The position numbers and the translations under genes are program-made. This document shows, piece after piece, positions 4,246 to 10,383 of a stretch of DNA of 20,000 nt; positions within the stretch are counted from its first letter, which is position 1, and every line of letters begins with the position of its first letter. Source of the stretch: Candidatus Heimdallarchaeota archaeon (GTDB lineage: Archaea > Asgardarchaeota > Heimdallarchaeia > JABLTI01). The stretch is taken from contig JABCTZ010000003.1 of assembly GCA_018238155.1 (NCBI GenBank), forward strand, positions 205,765 through 225,764, read 5' to 3'. The notes beneath the pieces are model-generated. The model was not told the origin of the DNA, made no database searches, and saw only the letters and a program-made list of their open reading frames with translations.

Positions 4246-4575
4246 TTAACACCAAGTGATAACTTTCTCGTACTTGTCCATAATGATGGAAATAGATTCA
4301 TCATAATCTACTTGTTTTATGTCTGGATGAACTTTGTCTCCAGTAATCCCACGAGCTTCTAAATCTTCTTTTATTGCATATACTTCAATACCGTGAGCTG
4401 CAGCATCAGCAATGATATTCTTTCCACCTTTCCAAGCAGCTAAAGTGCTATCTTGTATTAAGAGGACGCCAACATCATGACCGTTATCCATTTGGCTTTT
4501 CGTAATATCAAGTAAAGTTCCTTGTGCAGCACAAGTATAGATACTTTTTGATGTGATATAGAGTACTTTTACCAT
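4246..4575 (-). CDS. DsrH/TusB-like sulfur relay protein
   Basis: 109 aa, DsrE-like fold pattern (VLYITSKSIYTCAAQGTLLDITKSQMDNGHDVGVLLIQDST); adjacent to DsrF- and DsrE-like genes in the same direction; ends in a terminal Cys (VITWC). Confidence 0.6.
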   Translation of the reverse strand: MVKVLYITSKSIYTCAAQGTLLDITKSQMDNGHDVGVLLIQDSTLAAWKGGKNIIADAAAHGIEVYAIKEDLEARGITGDKVHPDIKQVDYDESISIIMDKYEKVITWC

Positions 4576-4588
4576 TTATTTTATCCTC

Positions 4589-4948
4589 CTATAATGCAAT
4601 AGTTGCACATGCATCTAAGAGTAATTCACTTAGATCTGCAACAGAAATAACTTTTACTTCAAGCTTTGGGTCCAAATCTTTAATTTGGATTCCTCTCTGC
4701 TCGAGAGATTTATCTAGAGCATAAATTGGCACTTCATATCTGTGAAGAGCTTCAAGAGCGCCCATTACTGAATGATGCCCAATTCCATCGGGGTTCTGAT
4801 CTTTTATGAGATTAAAAACTCCATCATCAATGAATATAGCATCATTTTCCACATCTAAAACAAGTAATCCTTGGCCAACACGAACGCCTTCGAGGCTGTT
4901 GATTATTCCATAAGGACCCTTTCGAAAAAGAACAATTACACGATCCAT
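4589..4948 (-). CDS. DsrF/TusC-like sulfur relay protein
   Basis: 119 aa; VIVLFRKGPYGIINSLEGVRVGQGLLVLDVENDAIFIDDGVFNLIKDQNP, DsrF/TusC-type pattern. Confidence 0.75.
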   Translation of the reverse strand: MDRVIVLFRKGPYGIINSLEGVRVGQGLLVLDVENDAIFIDDGVFNLIKDQNPDGIGHHSVMGALEALHRYEVPIYALDKSLEQRGIQIKDLDPKLEVKVISVADLSELLLDACATIAL

Positions 4949-4961
4949 TCTTCATTCACCT

Positions 4962-5336
4962 CTAAGCTGAAAAGATGAGGATTCTATCCGAATCTTCAAC
5001 ATACTCACTAAGAGCACCAAGACCATCGAAGCTACTTCCTTCGATAATCTTATCTTGACCCATTGTTCCACGATATTCAGCACAAATTGGACAAGCAACC
5101 ACAGGAATACCTGCTTCAACAAGTTCCTTAAATAATTCAGAAATATTTCTATCTCGATCATCAGATGGCTTAATATCTTTGACAACGTTGAAAACACCAT
5201 CTGTGTATAGATATATTCCTGTAACCTCATGACCTGCTTTTATTGCTGCTTTTGCAAGATGTATAACTGTATCTGAATTTTGAAAAGTATAAGGCGAGGT
5301 CATAACGAGAAATGCAATTCTACCCAAAAGTATCAC
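4962..5336 (-). CDS. DsrE/TusD-like sulfur relay protein
   Basis: 124 aa; AFLVMTSPYTFQNSDTVIHLAKAAIKAGHEVTGIYLYTDGVFNV and VPVVACPICAEYRG with the conserved sulfur-acceptor Cys region. Confidence 0.8.
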   Translation of the reverse strand: MILLGRIAFLVMTSPYTFQNSDTVIHLAKAAIKAGHEVTGIYLYTDGVFNVVKDIKPSDDRDRNISELFKELVEAGIPVVACPICAEYRGTMGQDKIIEGSSFDGLGALSEYVEDSDRILIFSA

Positions 5337-5498
5337 CTAACATATCTAATTCTAGTAAATTAATAAATTTGTTAAGAATAATGGTTTAAAAAGTATACGC
5401 ACGGGACGGCTCTTCTACTTAAGAAAATATACCCCCAACTTTATTTAAATTCTCGTTATTTCAAACTTAGATAATAATTGACTGTTTTTGTGATAAAA

Positions 5499-5921
5499 AT
5501 GTCTGACAGTAAAAAAAGTATGTCCATTATAGTCCATTCTGGTACTCTGGACAAAGCTTATCCTCCCTTGATGCTTGCTGTAGCTGCAGCTGCATCTGAT
5601 ATGCATGTTGATTTATTCTTTACTTTCTGGGGTTTACCTCTAATCAAGAAAAACGGTTTGAAAAAAGCCAAACTCCCAGGACTGATGCGTTTCGGAACCT
5701 TTATGATGAGACGCCGAATAAAGAAAGTAGGTATCGCAAAATTGCAAGAGTTACTTGAAGCTGCTGTTGAAACAGGCAATTTGAATATTTATGCTTGTAC
5801 TGCTACAATGGACTTGATGATGATCAAAAAAGAACAATTAATTCCTGAAGTAGATGGGTTCATAGGTGCCGCAGGTTTCATGGACATAGCTGTTGATGCT
5901 GATATTCATTTGTTCATATAA
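5499..5921 (+). CDS. DsrE/DsrF/DrsH-like family protein (DsrE2-like peroxiredoxin family type)
   Basis: MSDSKKSMSIIVHSGTLDKAYPPLMLAVAAAASDMHVDLFFTFWGLPLI...LPGLMRFGTFMMRRR...LQELLEAAVETGNLNIYACTATMDLMMI; track start 5478 is TTG, ATG 5499 is more likely. Confidence 0.85.
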   Translation: MSDSKKSMSIIVHSGTLDKAYPPLMLAVAAAASDMHVDLFFTFWGLPLIKKNGLKKAKLPGLMRFGTFMMRRRIKKVGIAKLQELLEAAVETGNLNIYACTATMDLMMIKKEQLIPEVDGFIGAAGFMDIAVDADIHLFI

Positions 5922-5937
5922 ATAAAGGAGAAATTAA

Positions 5938-6180
5938 ATGACTGATATTCCAACTTCTGATAAACTTTTAGATGCACGTGGATTACAATGTCCAATGCCT
6001 ATTTTGAAAGCAAAGAAAGAAATAGTAAAACTTGAAATAGGACAAATACTCGAGATATATTCAAATGATGAGGGATCAAAAGAAGATTTCCCACGATGGG
6101 CAAGAAGAACAGGTCATGAAATGCTTGGTATTTTCGATGAAGCCGATTATGCTCGGTATTTTGTAAAACGTCTGGTCTAA
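5938..6180 (+). CDS. tusA: TusA/SirA family sulfur carrier protein
   Basis: 80 aa; LLDARGLQCPMPILKAKKEIVKLEIGQILEIYSNDEGSKEDFPRWARRTGHEML with the CPxP catalytic motif. Confidence 0.92.
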   Translation: MTDIPTSDKLLDARGLQCPMPILKAKKEIVKLEIGQILEIYSNDEGSKEDFPRWARRTGHEMLGIFDEADYARYFVKRLV

Positions 6181-6294
6181 TCCAAGACCTTCCGTTATTT
6201 TTTTAAGTAAGTTTTTTTTAGTTTCAGATATTCTAAAAATAACAGTTTTTAGATTAATGGAATCAATCGTTTGTATTCCGTAAAAACGGCAAAC

Positions 6295-6302
6295 TTTAAA
6301 AA
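6295..6302 (+). promoter_or_regulatory. Putative TATA/box A of the permuted 5S rRNA gene
   Basis: TTTAAAAA at 6295-6302; expected start 24-27 nt downstream (about 6325) coincides with the first base of the flanking stem at 6327. Confidence 0.5.
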
Positions 6303-6326
6303 CCAAAAGGCAAAACGATTGAATCA

Positions 6327-6483
6327 CGCAAAAACTCATCACCGGAAGTTAAGCCTTCATACGTAGTGATAATTACTGATCTGAGAGATCGTTCGGGAAC
6401 ATCATTAAGCTGCGTTGCGACGCGGTCAAAGCTGGAGGGCAACACCCGGACCCGTCCGATCCCGGAAATGGTGAGTTTTGGCG
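6327..6483 (+). rRNA. Circularly permuted 5S rRNA gene (including flanking closing stem; 5S-like core about 6342-6468)
   Basis: 3' domain first: CCGGAAGTTAAGCCTTCATACGTAGTGATAATTACTGATCTGAGAGATCGTTCGGGAACATCATTAAGCTGCGT (6342-6415). TGCG tetraloop at 6416-6419. Then 5' domain: ACGCGGTCAAAGCTGGAGGGCAACACCCGGACCCGTCCGATCCCGG (6420-6465). Helix I: 6410-6415 with 6420-6425. Helix II: 6433-6438 with 6354-6359. Helix III CCGG (6446-6449) with CCGG (6462-6465). Helix V/IV base: 6364-6370 with 6401-6407. Apical hairpin GATCT-GAG-AGATC at 6378-6390. Conserved archaeal TACTG...CGGGAA loop E-type sequences are present. Confidence 0.88.
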
Positions 6484-6503
6484 ACTAATTGTACCAGAAA
6501 CGA

Positions 6504-6515
6504 TTCTTTCTTATT
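6504..6515 (+). terminator. T-rich tract downstream of the permuted 5S
   Basis: TTCTTTCTTATT pyrimidine/T-rich stretch about 20 nt after the flanking stem; archaeal T-tract termination is plausible. Confidence 0.35.
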
Positions 6516-6584
6516 ATAATTACCTCAAAATCATTTGAATTATAGTTAATTTTTTTTAAATAAAAGAAATAATAAAAGATTAGC

Positions 6585-6941
6585 TTATTCTAGCTTATCT
6601 TCTACATCAAAAGCCATTTTTCCAGCTTCAACAGTTATAAAACTGAAACTCAATGTATGTGTTCCTGAAGATAAAGAACCTTTGATTTTAAAAGTAAAAG
6701 TATCTCCCTTTGTTAATTTGAAGGGATTTTCCTTGGAAATTTCTGCTACTGCTATTTCTTGTTCTTTAACAAAAATGTTAATTGTGTTCAAATTTAATTC
6801 TTGACCATCAATTTTAAGATATTCAACTTTTTTAACAGTGCCAGGGTATAAATTATTCCGTAATTGAAAGGAATATTCTTCTCCTTCTTGAGCTAAGCTG
6901 CCTTGAACATACAATTTCTTTAACATCGCTTTTGGAATCAT
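6585..6941 (-). CDS. Small beta-sandwich-like protein, possible DUF6379/C-glycoside deglycosidase beta-subunit relative
   Basis: 118 aa; MIPKAMLKKLYVQGSLAQEGEEYSFQLRNNLYPGTVKKVEYLKIDGQELN...VKEQEIAVAEI...KLTKGDTFTFKIKGSLSSGTHTLSFSF resembles that family's general layout. Assignment is from recalled motif pattern only. Confidence 0.4.
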   Translation of the reverse strand: MIPKAMLKKLYVQGSLAQEGEEYSFQLRNNLYPGTVKKVEYLKIDGQELNLNTINIFVKEQEIAVAEISKENPFKLTKGDTFTFKIKGSLSSGTHTLSFSFITVEAGKMAFDVEDKLE

Positions 6942-7091: not shown

Positions 7092-8117
7092 ATGAGACAA
7101 ATGCAGACATTTATTGTTCTTCTATTAATAGTATCATTACAAACTAATACAGAGTTTATAGACAATGTTACATCTCATACTGGCGAAAATAACCTAAAAG
7201 AGATTAATAATGGGACAATAAATGTTGTAGCTTCGATTTCAATTGTGGCTGATTTTAGCAATCAAATTGGCGAGGGAATTTTTACTGTAGAAAGTATTGT
7301 GTCTGGGAATGAAAATCCACATGTCTATGAACCATCTCCACATGAAATAGAAAAGGTCGCACAAGCAGATCTTTTTGTGAGATTAGGATTAGAAGGATTA
7401 GAGCCATGGGTTCAATCTGTTTTGGATGTAAACCCTGGAATAAATGTTTTAGAATTAGTAAATTCATCAATGATAGAATTCGATGATGTAATTAATTCTA
7501 ATAATCCTCATGTTTGGATGGATCCAAATAATGTTAAAATAATGATTGAAGAAATTTATCAAAGTGTCTCATTATTAGATCCAACAAATATTGCAACTTA
7601 TGAATCTAATAGAGACTCTTATCTCAATGAACTTGATTTATTACTTATTCGAATTGATCAAGCAAAGGGCGTTTTTAGTGGAACAAAGGTAGTTGTTCAT
7701 CATCCCTCATTCAAATATTTCTTTGATTTACTCGGAATTATTCGAATTGGGGCAATTGAAGAACAAGATGGTGTTGAACCTTCTCCTGATCATATACAAG
7801 AAATAATTTCTGCTATTGAATTAGAAAATGTCACTTTAATAATAAATCAACCTCAATTGGATGATGAAACTGTAAATCAAATTGCAAGAGATACAGAAAT
7901 ACAGATTGTTAATTTAACTCCCTTGCTAGGAGTTTATAGTTTAGTTGATTATATTTCTATGATTGACTACAACATATTGGCACTCAAGAATCCTTTCAAT
8001 CCATCTTCATCATTCTTACCATGGACAACTTGGTTACTAATAGGGTTTGCCGGAACAATACTTGTAGCATTAGGTGTTGCAATAATAATTGTAAGAAGTA
8101 AAAATCCAAGAAAATAA
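7092..8117 (+). CDS. Zn/Mn-type ABC transporter substrate-binding protein (TroA/ZnuA family), C-terminally membrane anchored
   Basis: 341 aa; NPHVYEPSPHEIEKVAQADLFVRLG, NPHVWMDPNNVKIM, VVVHHPSFKYFFDLLGI metal-ligand His motifs; C-terminal TM WLLIGFAGTILVALGVAIIIV. Confidence 0.93.
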   Translation: MRQMQTFIVLLLIVSLQTNTEFIDNVTSHTGENNLKEINNGTINVVASISIVADFSNQIGEGIFTVESIVSGNENPHVYEPSPHEIEKVAQADLFVRLGLEGLEPWVQSVLDVNPGINVLELVNSSMIEFDDVINSNNPHVWMDPNNVKIMIEEIYQSVSLLDPTNIATYESNRDSYLNELDLLLIRIDQAKGVFSGTKVVVHHPSFKYFFDLLGIIRIGAIEEQDGVEPSPDHIQEIISAIELENVTLIINQPQLDDETVNQIARDTEIQIVNLTPLLGVYSLVDYISMIDYNILALKNPFNPSSSFLPWTTWLLIGFAGTILVALGVAIIIVRSKNPRK

Positions 8118-8133
8118 AGGGCTGGTTATCAAA

Positions 8134-8568
8134 TTGAAACGTAGAATAGATTTGGAAGAAAAGTTGTTAGATTTCTTGCATTCGTGGCTTCGTCCAATAC
8201 GAATTGGAGATTTAAAGAAAGAATTAGAGAAAGAACATATTGCCATCCCTCATTCATCTATTAATTCAATAATCAAGAGGTTGGTGGATGATAAGTTAAT
8301 TACTTGGCAAAAATACGGTCCAATTTCTTTAACTCAGAAAGGACAACAACAAGCAGCTCATAAACAAAGACATTTTCATTTATTGATAATGTTCTTTATG
8401 AATACTCTCCATTTGTCACATCGGGAAGCAAAAAAAGAGAGTCATGTAATAGCAAGTGTCATATCATGCAATATGATCGGTCAAATTAGCAGAGAGTTAA
8501 ATAACCCTTTGAAGTGTCATTGCAATGAAACCATTCCTAGAGTGGAGCAATGCACAGTAAGAAACTAA
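8134..8568 (+). CDS. DtxR/MntR-like metal-dependent transcriptional regulator
   Basis: 144 aa; N-terminal wHTH (LLDFLHSWLRPIRIGDLKKEL...SINSIIKRLVDDKLITWQKYGPISLTQKGQQQA), then KQRHFHLLIMFFMNTLHLSHREAKKESHVIASVISCNMIGQISRELNNPLKCHCNETIP, matching DtxR dimerization-domain layout. Sits inside the ABC operon. Confidence 0.75.
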   Translation: MKRRIDLEEKLLDFLHSWLRPIRIGDLKKELEKEHIAIPHSSINSIIKRLVDDKLITWQKYGPISLTQKGQQQAAHKQRHFHLLIMFFMNTLHLSHREAKKESHVIASVISCNMIGQISRELNNPLKCHCNETIPRVEQCTVRN

Positions 8569-8584
8569 TCAAGGTGAGTAAACA

Positions 8585-9595
8585 ATGAGCGTTTTACTAG
8601 AATTCTTCCAAGCATTTCAATATCCATTTATGCAAAGAGCATTTGTATCCGCATTTGTGATTGGCATCGTTTGTTCAATTATTGGTGTTTTTGTTCTCTT
8701 GAGAGGGCTAATCTTCCTAGGGCAAGCAATTGCTCATTCTGCATTTGCAGGTGCGGCATTAGCTATTCTTACAGGCATCGATCCGATATTAACAATAATT
8801 GGTTTTTCAGTTGTATCTGCAATTGGCATTGGTTATGTCAATCAAAAGAAATTAATGAATAGTGAGGTGATAATTGGCATTGTCTTTGCATTCTTTATGG
8901 CGTTGGCAATACTTTTCATTGGTTTACATGGAGAATATAGTTCAGATATCAATTCAATCCTTTTTGGTAATATATTACTCGTTGACCTTGCAGATATGCT
9001 TCTTCTAATAGTTTTTTCTGTTGTTATTCTTCTGATAGTTTTTGCAATCAAAAAGGAGTTATATTTTATGACGTTTGACTCTCAACAAGCACAAGTTTCA
9101 GGTGTGCCTGTTAAATTCCTTTCCTATCTCTTCCTTATTGCAGTTTCTTTAACAATTTCAGTTTCACTAAAAGCGATCGGAGCAATTTTGGTTTTTGCTA
9201 TGATTGTTACTCCTGCGGCAGCAGCATATCAATGGACTTTCAAAATTAATACTATGATTATACTCTCAGCTATCTTTGGGGTTTTCTCAGCTATCTTTGG
9301 TTTATTCTTTTCATATATTTTGGATTTGCCTTCAGGTTCAACTATTGTTATATTAATAACATTGATCTTTGTTATCTCGTTTATTGCTTCTCCAAAAAGA
9401 AGAGCTTCTAAAAAAGATCTCCTGGAATGTCCTTTCTGCAAAGATTATCTTCCTGGACCTTGTGAGGATTGTAATGGTGATTGTGATTTGGGAATACCTC
9501 ATACACATGAAGAAGAACGAATTATAATAAGTACAAAACATTTACCTGATAAGGATCCAACTACACACAACCATATGGAGGAGGAAACAAAGTAA
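8585..9595 (+). CDS. Zn/Mn-type ABC transporter permease (ZnuB/MntB family) with Cys/His-rich C-terminal tail
   Basis: 336 aa, multi-TM; FLLGQAIAHSAFAGAALAIL-type motif (FLGQAIAHSAFAGAALAILTG), AIGAILVFAMIVTPAAAAYQ; tail ECPFCKDYLPGPCEDCNGDCDLGIPHTHEE... Confidence 0.93.
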   Translation: MSVLLEFFQAFQYPFMQRAFVSAFVIGIVCSIIGVFVLLRGLIFLGQAIAHSAFAGAALAILTGIDPILTIIGFSVVSAIGIGYVNQKKLMNSEVIIGIVFAFFMALAILFIGLHGEYSSDINSILFGNILLVDLADMLLLIVFSVVILLIVFAIKKELYFMTFDSQQAQVSGVPVKFLSYLFLIAVSLTISVSLKAIGAILVFAMIVTPAAAAYQWTFKINTMIILSAIFGVFSAIFGLFFSYILDLPSGSTIVILITLIFVISFIASPKRRASKKDLLECPFCKDYLPGPCEDCNGDCDLGIPHTHEEERIIISTKHLPDKDPTTHNHMEEETK

Positions 9596-10383
9596 TGACT
9601 AGTAAGGAAATTAATAAAGTGAATAATTCTACTGTTGCTTCTTCTAGCAAAACTCCAAAGCCAATTATTTGTGTTCATGATGTTGTTGTTGCTTATCAAT
9701 CAAATGTTGCGATATTTGATATTAATCTCGACATCTTCAGGAACGAGTTTGTTGGTATTTGTGGTCCAAATGGTTCTGGGAAAAGTACATTATTAAAAAG
9801 TATTATTGGCGCTGTTGACCCGCTAAAAGGAACAGTCAAGATTTTAGGTGAAGATATTTTAAAGAAAGGAAGTCTACATGGACTAAGGAAAAAATTTGGT
9901 TACCTTCCTCAAAAAACTGAAATTGATCGTAACTTTCCTGCATTAGTAAAAGATGTTGTAGGGATGGGACTCTATTCAACCGTTGGTCTCTTTAGAAGTT
10001 TAAACAAAAAAGATTATGAAAGAATCGATCGAGCACTTGAAATTGTGGAGTTGGATCAGTTCAAAGATAGACCAATAGGGCATCTATCTGGCGGACAACA
10101 ACAGAAGGTAATGATTGCCAGAGGAATTGTTAATGAACCCGAAATTCTCTTTTTGGACGAACCCACCTCGGCTCTAGATTTCAAGGTTGCAAGAAATATT
10201 ATGACCCTTATACGGAAGATTCACGAAGAAACAGAACTAACAATTATCTTGGTAAGTCACGATATTGACTTTATCAAGAATAATTGTTCTAGAGCAGTTT
10301 GTATGAATAGGCGGATTGTTTGGGAAGGAAATCCAAAAGATGAAGAATTTGATGAAGTGATAAACAGAGTTTTCCTAAAATAG
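9595..10383 (+). CDS. Zn/Mn-type ABC transporter ATP-binding protein (ZnuC family)
   Basis: 262 aa; Walker A GPNGSGKST, signature LSGGQQQKVMIARG, Walker B ILFLDEP; start overlaps the permease stop (TAATG). Confidence 0.95.
   Translation: MTSKEINKVNNSTVASSSKTPKPIICVHDVVVAYQSNVAIFDINLDIFRNEFVGICGPNGSGKSTLLKSIIGAVDPLKGTVKILGEDILKKGSLHGLRKKFGYLPQKTEIDRNFPALVKDVVGMGLYSTVGLFRSLNKKDYERIDRALEIVELDQFKDRPIGHLSGGQQQKVMIARGIVNEPEILFLDEPTSALDFKVARNIMTLIRKIHEETELTIILVSHDIDFIKNNCSRAVCMNRRIVWEGNPKDEEFDEVINRVFLK

Follow-up and report, generated by a model that had tools for sequence, protein, structure and literature searches.

5S rRNA is universal, and across cellular genomes neither the layout of its gene nor its free-ended helix I is expected to vary. 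A hairpin in a 20,000-nucleotide stretch of Candidatus Heimdallarchaeota DNA (contig JABCTZ010000003.1 of assembly GCA_018238155.1, positions 205,765 to 225,764; this whole stretch is referred to as the window) raises the question of whether a 5S rRNA can be encoded with its native 5' and 3' ends joined, and in what form such an RNA would reach the ribosome. A first-pass annotation of the letters had proposed a permuted 5S gene in which the native ends are fused through a minimal tetraloop, with the permuted connectivity persisting in the mature rRNA. The window sequence is identical to contigs of NCBI assemblies GCA_018238125.1 and GCA_018238085.1.

Identity and conservation of the permuted gene

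Comparative sequence analysis confirmed that positions 6327 to 6483 of the window are a 5S rRNA gene that stands alone and is circularly permuted, from a Heimdall-group Asgard archaeon. Inside an outer helix, the gene runs from 5S position 52 to the native 3' end, through a 4-nt loop, and then from the native 5' end to position 51. The 3' portion (6348 to 6415, forward strand; about 50 to 120 of the Rfam model) comprises GUUAAGC, the 3' strand of helix II, helix V, loop E, helix IV, loop D and the 3' strand of helix I, with helices II, IV and V covarying. The 5' portion (6420 to 6467, forward strand; about 5 to 53 of the model) comprises the 5' strands of helix I and helix II, separated by loop A (CAAAGC), followed by loop B and by helix III with loop C and the bulged A6466 and A6467.

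Across the whole window, no Rfam match was obtained at the gathering threshold, and ARAGORN identified no tRNA. A permissive Rfam scan of positions 6200 to 6600 returned two half matches to RF00001 that meet at the loop, with model positions of about 50 to 120 located at 6346 to 6418 and about 5 to 53 at 6422 to 6470. These scored 17.5 and 16.6 bits, respectively, against a gathering score of 38, a threshold that the linear sequence does not reach because of the permutation. When columns 27 to 148 of the alignment of relatives described below were opened at the loop, the resulting sequences of 116 to 118 nt folded as a canonical 5S rRNA; the RNAalifold structure had helices I, II, III, V and IV and included 14 compensatory pairs. 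The rotated sequences aligned gap-free through CCGGAA|GUUAAGCC (CCGGAAGUUAAGCC) to the normal 5S rRNA of L088, an ordinary archaeal gene scoring 62.5 bits against RF00001. They displayed the three-way junction, helices I to V, loop A (CAWAGC), the loop C hairpin, the GAAGUUAAGC segment and the loop E region, and the circular fold of one relative (L092) likewise had the 5S shape.

To our pattern scan of GTDB species genomes, at least seven loci of the same arrangement were visible among the matches listed, in MAGs labeled Candidatus Heimdallarchaeota (L048, L055, L058, and L110), Candidatus Hodarchaeota (L007), and Promethearchaeati (L056 and L092), the last of which is the Asgard kingdom. A tighter pattern identified 11 further loci in JGI metagenomes. 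Both of these large collection scans used exact patterns. The alignment (A2) contained 18 distinct sequences, 15 of the Heimdall type and three of the Hodarchaeota type, and the range of taxa it covers should be read as a lower bound. Core identity to the window ranged from 97% down to 61%, while the outer-helix strands of the Hodarchaeota-type sequences were only 9 to 27% identical to those of the window. In the window, the neighbors of the gene encode a PAC2 proteasome chaperone, an Mrp/NUBPL ATPase, DsrE/F/H, TusA and ZnuABC, and the order DsrE2-TusA-5S-(orf118)-ZnuA is conserved in the Heimdall-type loci. Two contigs of 3.05 Mb and 435 kb that carry DsrE2 homologues have a different gene order, with neither a permuted nor a canonical 5S gene nearby.

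Signals flanking the gene suggest that it is transcribed on its own. A conserved upstream motif, AAAAACGGCAAACTTTAAAAA (6282 to 6302, forward strand), includes the TATA-like box TTTAAAAA at 6295 to 6302, about 24 nt before the processing stem begins, and was considered a putative promoter based on the archaeal TATA consensus. The motif lies at the same distance in the Heimdall-type relatives, and TTTTTAAA is found at the equivalent distance in the Hodarchaeota-type loci. Downstream, the T-rich tract TTCTTTCTTATT (6504 to 6515, forward strand) may be an archaeal terminator, and runs of T5 to T8 occur 10 to 35 nt past the outer helix in most relatives. With a TATA-like box before it and T-rich tracts after it, the permuted 5S gene looks like a short independent transcription unit.

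The precursor alignment supported the encoded structure. Across the 18 sequences, 99.2% of the proposed pairs can form, compared with 33 to 46% when the 3' partners are slid by one to three columns; 21 of the 43 pairs have changed on both sides, and none of 500 shuffled alignments reached any of these measures. All 5S helices covary, with compensatory changes in every one. A covariance model built from the permuted family (R1) gave 149 to 189 bits for the members tested, whereas ordinary 5S genes scored no more than 33 bits. Scanning with R1 revealed no second copy of the permuted gene in the window, and neither the window nor 116 kb of the relatives' loci yielded a canonical 5S gene. The locus could in principle be what is left of a decayed tandem 5S duplication, or an artefact of assembly, as its score lies under the Rfam gathering threshold and tandem 5S copies with short spacers exist in some bacteria, where they appeared as by-catch of the pattern scan. 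Against this stand the identical architecture in 18 distinct sequences from independent assemblies, the compensatory changes in every helix, the conserved promoter-like box and the T-rich tracts after the gene, the conserved DsrE2-TusA-5S synteny and the R1 scores of 149 to 189 bits on all members tested; this explanation is already effectively refuted and retains a negligible probability.

The hairpin that closes helix I

The letters from 6408 to 6427 were found exactly as the first-pass annotation had read them: CTGCGT at 6410 to 6415, TGCG at 6416 to 6419 and ACGCGG at 6420 to 6425. The six pairs it had drawn between the first and the last of these segments, including one U-G (U6411-G6424), were confirmed, and the wobble G6409-U6426 was added as the seventh pair of helix I. 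The capped helix thus occupies 6409 to 6426 of the forward strand, with 6409 to 6415 paired with 6420 to 6426 over 7 bp around the UGCG loop at 6416 to 6419, and has a predicted energy of -8.8 kcal/mol. In isolation, its stability is not beyond chance (z = -1.5; 16 of 200 shuffles were equally stable). The hairpin being unremarkable on its own, its weight comes from context and conservation.

The loop of helix I is exactly 4 nt long in all 18 distinct sequences, reading UGCG in 10, UUCG in five, CGCG in two and UGUG in one. Fifteen loops are therefore of the UNCG form, and 17 are YNCG once CGCG is included, with UGUG the exception. The loop-closing pair is U-A in the window and in all Heimdall-type sequences, U.G in L007 and L127, and C-G only in L129, which is the only sequence with the classic C(UUCG)G. 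As the window has a U-A closing pair, the exceptional stability of C(UNCG)G is not to be assumed for it. The assignment of the loop to the UNCG class accordingly held for the UGCG of the window and for 15 of the 18 sequences, but not for the closing pair in the window or for the UGUG relative. Viewed against the UNCG/YNMG tetraloops, UGCG, UUCG and CGCG fit, UGUG and the U-A closing pair differ, and what all the loops share is the 4-nt Y..G form.

Helix I is 98% paired across the 18 sequences, with two compensatory pairs. The stem GCUGCGU/ACGCGGU does not change among the 15 Heimdall-type sequences, while the loop varies at three of its four positions. Helix I of the Hodarchaeota type has 8 bp with compensatory changes (C-G to U-A; A.C or A-U) and a UUCG loop. 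A loop of constant length and YNCG-like but variable sequence on an invariant stem is the pattern of a structural cap. Variable length would be expected of an excisable spacer, and a conserved sequence of a nuclease recognition site; the loop matches neither. No spacer, bulge, bulge-helix-bulge (BHB) or other processing motif was visible at helix I in the 18 sequences. The free ends that characterize the distal part of helix I in a 5S rRNA are absent from the gene, being closed by 4 nt in 18 of 18. These patterns argue that the cap is a retained structural element, and it is very probably permanent in the mature RNA.

The proposal of a permuted 5S gene with its native ends joined by a minimal tetraloop and no spacer was therefore borne out, by the two Rfam half matches as well as by the 18 sequences. 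Long variable linkers in relatives, which the first-pass annotation had named as evidence against its reading, were not found, the 4-nt length being kept down to about 61% core identity. The covariation of helix I and conservation of the loop that it had asked to see in relatives were both present, in the pairing frequency, the two compensatory pairs and the 4-nt loop throughout.

Joined native ends also have an experimental precedent. An E. coli 5S rRNA with its native ends joined by a 4-nt connector takes its normal position in active ribosomes (PMC7283268), and a capped helix I thus appears structurally tolerable. The engineered E. coli cp5S (Huang et al. 2020, PMC7283268) resembles the archaeal RNA in its 4-nt connector, in having a capped helix I in functional ribosomes and in the location of its new ends in the beta or gamma domain. 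It differs in being artificial and in that its ends, in loop C or loop D, are tethered into 23S rRNA and not ligated to each other.

The outer helix and the relaxed bulge-helix-bulge motif at the new ends

Folding of 6325 to 6485 gave a long terminal stem in which 6327 to 6341 pair with 6469 to 6483 (11 to 14 bp). The leader strand (6327 to 6341, forward strand) consists of CGC at 6327 to 6329, an unpaired A and AAAACUCAUCA at 6331 to 6341, and pairs with 6469 to 6479 and 6481 to 6483. The trailer strand (6469 to 6483, forward strand) consists of UGGUGAGUUUU at 6469 to 6479, a G, and GCG at 6481 to 6483. All 11 core pairs of this outer helix are formed in 18 of 18 sequences, and nine of the 11 have changed on both sides.

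Immediately inside the stem, the leader segment CCGG-AAG (6342 to 6348) lies opposite CCGG-AAA (6462 to 6468) on the 3' side, and the two CCGG tetramers form a 4-bp helix. The leader CCGG (element a, 6342 to 6345, forward strand) is the 5' strand of this central helix, with 6462 to 6465 (element b2) as its partner. The AAA bulge (6466 to 6468, forward strand) is located between the 4-bp and outer helices, and the AAG bulge (6346 to 6348, forward strand) is on the other strand at the far end of the 4-bp helix. In the canonical BHB of pre-tRNAs, each bulge is positioned 3' of its central-helix strand. The same polarity is found here, together with a 4-bp central helix, two 3-nt bulges on opposite strands and an outer helix h. 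From the canonical BHB rule, we infer cuts at A6347/G6348 and A6467/A6468, where G6348 is 5S position 52. Bulge lengths and positions are constant in 18 of 18 sequences. The 5' bulge is invariant, the 3' bulge is AAA in 17 sequences and AAU in L127, and the bases that would be retained do not vary. The only variable bulge position, the third base of the 3' bulge (A or U), is predicted to be discarded.

Manual inspection of the window clade revealed no contiguous inner helix h' after the 5' bulge, as G6348-C and U6349-A pair only across a loop of approximately 18 nt, and the motif is therefore not of the strict hBHBh' form. Lacking a contiguous inner helix, it corresponds to the relaxed hBH or bulge-helix-loop as defined in PMC5829648. 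For the same reason the 5' cut site is placed in a junction, where only an enzyme of relaxed specificity would cut. On sequence and predicted structure, the new ends of the gene carry a relaxed BHB motif. The first-pass annotation had reported no processing signals; this is true of helix I, but the new gene ends carry this conserved and covarying motif.

The central helix was examined against the alternative partners of its strands. Pairing of a with b2 is possible in 72 of 72 cells (CCGG or CUGG against CCGG or UCGG). The changes are of the one-sided wobble type only, with no double compensatory change, so that the support for the central helix is consistent pairing in few lineages; the conservation evidence for these 4 bp is consistent but thin. 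Element b2 is also the native 3' strand of helix III, in which it pairs with b1 (6446 to 6449). In two lineages, L131 and the Hodarchaeota clade, this b1/b2 helix has changed from G-C to A-U; there, a keeps its pairing with b2 via G.U and mismatches b1. The covariation of b1/b2 shows that this is the helix that functions in the mature RNA.

Pairing of the leader CCGG with b1 was considered as a conserved interaction and rejected. It is 94% paired and breaks in four sequences, L131 and the three of the Hodarchaeota type, through a C.A mismatch, whereas a/b2 never breaks. As b1/b2 covaries but a/b1 does not, the leader copy does not behave as a functional strand of helix III. RNAalifold chose the a/b1 pairing. 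In constrained folding, the a/b1 and BHB conformers of the window had energies of -52.0 and -52.7 kcal/mol, respectively, and a/b1 was the better of the two in the five others folded. The two conformers are thus about equal in stability, with no thermodynamic preference for the BHB form, and both were more stable than the native fold with a unpaired.

Predicted processing, rival fates and meaning

In the processing pathway that we propose, the transcript would begin just upstream of the 11- to 14-bp leader/trailer helix. The leader CCGG would pair with the native helix III 3' strand (6462 to 6465), forming a relaxed BHB with the outer helix, and the second 3-nt bulge would open into a junction. 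An EndA of the broad-specificity (alpha-beta)2 type would then cut both bulges, at A6347/G6348 and A6467/A6468, and RtcB would join A51 to G52, restoring the canonical CCGGAAGUUAAGC. After removal of the leader copy, helix III would refold through b1/b2, and the product, a covalently closed 5S rRNA, would enter the ribosome without free ends. The predicted circle, 6348 to 6467, is 120 nt long (122 nt in the Hodarchaeota type). Its predicted junction CCGGAA/GUUAAGC corresponds to the canonical, near-universal 5S positions 46 to 58, with no base gained or lost, and a cut after the first instead of the second bulge base would give the same product. The ligation junction can also be written CCGAUCCCGGAA/GUUAAGCCUUC, and the junction sequence GUCCGAUCCCGGAAGUUAAGCCUUCAUACG is absent from the DNA.

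Support for such cutting and ligation is indirect. Asgard archaea, including a Heimdallarchaeota genome, encode an (alpha-beta)2 EndA with an L1 (crenarchaeal-type) loop (Kaneta et al. 2018, PMC5829648), and only EndA with such an L1-type loop cleaves relaxed motifs such as hBH (PMC5829648). The Hodarchaeota-type loci themselves have a tRNA-Phe gene just upstream of the 5S gene, with an intron at the noncanonical position 22/23 that is 37 nt long in L007 and 26 nt in L129 and is lacking in L127. The intron borders form a 4-bp helix (CGGG with CCUG or UCCG) with 3-nt bulges and a weak outer helix, and these relaxed-BHB introns indicate that the lineage evidently processes relaxed BHBs at unusual sites. 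To our knowledge, the products of archaeal splicing endonucleases described so far, namely tRNA exons, introns and rRNA circles, are all ligated. Mature ribosomes of many archaea have been reported to contain 23S rRNA in circular form, and Asgard archaea to have circular 16S and 23S transcripts (PMC12918454).

Given the conserved BHB at the new ends and the canonical junction of its predicted product, a closed circle is more likely than a linear permuted molecule as the mature RNA. The persisting permuted connectivity put forward in the first-pass annotation is thus retained as far as the conserved cap is concerned, but with a product that would restore CCGGAA|GUUAAGC at the other end of the molecule, so that the RNA would more likely be closed than linear. 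A linear permuted RNA would have helix I capped and its new ends unligated, being either trimmed of leader and trailer by EndA or some other nuclease and nicked between A51 and G52 in helix III or left with part of the outer helix as an arm. The capped helix I and its conservation fit such an RNA equally well, a linear permuted 5S rRNA exists in brown-algal mitochondria (PMC4267664), and the a/b1 conformer, in which the leader copy replaces the 3' strand of helix III, is as stable as the BHB and was the structure selected by RNAalifold. However, exact BHB geometry and polarity have been kept while the outer helix was rewritten, which simple trimming would not need, and the leader copy is not a functional helix III strand, as it is b1/b2 and not a/b1 that covaries. 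In addition, the known products of archaeal splicing endonucleases are ligated (PMC12918454), and a retained 11-bp arm at the helix III bulge is without counterpart in any 5S rRNA. A linear permuted mature RNA is therefore regarded as unlikely.

Slightly less probable again is a circle that serves as an intermediate and is reopened in or next to the 4-nt loop, giving an ordinary linear 5S rRNA with a 7-bp helix I. In Cyanidioschyzon, the products of permuted tRNA genes pass through a circle before they are restored, according to the work as it is cited in PMC4267664, and the 23S rRNA of P. furiosus is circularized and then relinearized by excision of helix 98 (PMC7758197); a single cut in the loop would leave short overhangs of normal appearance. 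Yet helix I has no spacer, bulge or BHB, and its constant 4-nt loop, of the compact YNCG type in 17 of 18 sequences, would be a poor nuclease substrate. The loop is unlike the variable intervening segments of permuted tRNAs, and the fact that its sequence varies while its length is fixed argues against sequence-specific cleavage. Returning to the permanently closed circle, the full chain of BHB cutting, ligation and a permanent cap is given a probability of one half or marginally above. The broader proposal, that the sole 5S rRNA of Heimdall-group Asgard archaea (Heimdallarchaeota and Hodarchaeota MAGs) is a closed circle of 120 to 122 nt made by EndA and RtcB that functions without ends, we hold to be evenly poised between true and false.

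Among known systems, the closest in mechanism are the permuted tRNA genes of Cyanidioschyzon. According to the work cited in PMC4267664, these also have the 3' half upstream of the 5' half and a BHB at the precursor termini, with a canonical junction; cutting and ligation are predicted in the 5S case. The same account has the intervening sequence of the tRNAs excised by RNase P and tRNase Z to yield a linear canonical RNA. In contrast, the permuted 5S has only a conserved 4-nt loop with no visible reopening signal, and concerns 5S rRNA in Archaea. The distinction that the first-pass annotation had drawn from permuted tRNAs is consequently sound for the native ends, where there is nothing to excise, but not for the first step, the BHB cut and ligation, which would be alike.

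As a processing system, archaeal rRNA circularization is the closest. The 16S and 23S rRNAs share with the proposed 5S pathway a leader/trailer stem with a BHB, cutting by EndA and ligation by RtcB (predicted for 5S) and, for 23S, a persisting closed form (PMC12918454). The 16S and 23S genes are collinear and their BHB lies outside the mature RNA, whereas the 5S gene is permuted and its BHB, relaxed and without inner helix, lies inside the body of the RNA, at the helix III bulge. According to the literature, 5S rRNA is not known to be BHB-processed (PMC12918454), and the 23S rRNA of P. furiosus is circularly permuted (PMC7758197).

The 5S rRNA of brown-algal mitochondria is the only natural permuted 5S described before. 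This mtPerm-5S, found in brown algae and other stramenopiles (Valach et al. 2014, PMC4267664), likewise has helix I as a closed hairpin and its ends elsewhere. It differs in that a 5' hairpin replaces helix I and the three-way junction is open, with the ends at the alpha/gamma junction; its halves are not reordered, the beta and gamma domains being collinear, it has no BHB, and its mature form is linear. In the archaeal gene, the break falls within helix III, dividing the beta domain and carrying a putative ligation signal, and the gamma domain comes ahead of the 5' part, an arrangement outside the definition of mtPerm-5S. Full-text searches of the literature found no earlier description of a permuted or circular archaeal 5S rRNA.

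In the description of two closed Heimdallarchaeum genomes, prediction of a 5S gene was unsuccessful (Wu et al., PMC8813620), while 5S genes have been reported in MAGs of other Asgard lineages, Borr- and Jordarchaeum (PMC9723677). A permuted gene, being invisible to the standard 5S model, fits this failure and offers an explanation for the seemingly missing 5S genes of Heimdallarchaeum. That standard tools such as Rfam miss the permuted gene also affects the quality scoring of MAGs where a 5S gene is required, and the R1 covariance model can be used to annotate the permuted family. If the proposed pathway is true, its product would be the first circular 5S rRNA, and the locus the first permuted cellular (nonorganellar) 5S gene. 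BHB/EndA/RtcB processing would be extended to 5S rRNA, with the motif inside the body of the mature RNA, and the junction CCCGGAA/GUUAAGCC, absent from the genome, would mark a ribosome with circular 5S rRNA. The gene itself is a natural permuted cellular 5S gene in the archaeal lineage considered closest to eukaryotes.

Gene order around the permuted 5S rRNA gene

The permuted 5S rRNA gene (6327-6483) lies within a conserved gene order, DsrH-DsrE-DsrE / DsrE2-TusA / permuted 5S / 118-aa protein / ZnuA-repressor-ZnuB-ZnuC, in which the 118-aa protein 3' of the 5S gene carries an HMG-CoA_red_N-like domain. The blocks flanking the gene in the window (4246-6180 and 7092-10383) share synteny with the relatives' loci L048, L125, L126, and L132, among others, and TusA identity among the Heimdall-type loci extends down to 61%. 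This synteny was absent at the more distant DsrE2 homologues (L134 and L136).

Upstream motif and overlapping reading frame

A strongly conserved motif, AAAAACGG(C/T)AAACTTTAAA(A), was found upstream of the 5S gene (6282-6302), at a fixed distance from the processing stem formed by the leader and trailer in the window and at L048, L126, L055, L056, L131, L132, and L123. A TATA box alone would be shorter than this motif, which may represent a lineage-specific promoter or BRE element of the permuted gene. An 88-aa ORF with a GTG start on the minus strand (6076-6342) overlaps both the 3' end of TusA and the leader and putative promoter of the 5S gene. No gene is annotated at this position in the NCBI contigs, and the ORF is almost certainly spurious.

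tRNA-Phe genes at the Hodarchaeota-type loci

At the Hodarchaeota-type loci, the permuted 5S is preceded upstream, on the same strand, by a tRNA-Phe(GAA) gene, which contains a 37-nt intron in L007 (3272-3382, plus strand) and a 26-nt intron in L129 (5418-5517, minus strand) and is intronless in L127 (1902-1978, plus strand). Both introns occupy a noncanonical site, D-arm position 22/23, where a relaxed bulge-helix-bulge (BHB) motif comprises 3-nt bulges and a 4-bp helix in which CGGG pairs with CCUG or UCCG. Neither intron-bearing copy was detected by ARAGORN.

Possible origin of the permutation

The genome-scan matches listed included, as by-catch, tandem 5S rRNA genes spaced only ~10 to 25 nt apart, from Clostridia/Ruminococcus MAGs (L005, L032, L039, L041, L043, L081, L094, L098, and L111) and Bacillus (L040). 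A permuted gene could be derived from such closely spaced tandem genes if the outer halves were lost. At the motif of the new ends (6342-6348 and 6462-6468), the native helix III 3' strand with its two bulged adenines (CCGG-AA) already resembles half a BHB, i.e., one helix strand and one bulge; this resemblance may account for the permutation break and ligation site having evolved precisely there.
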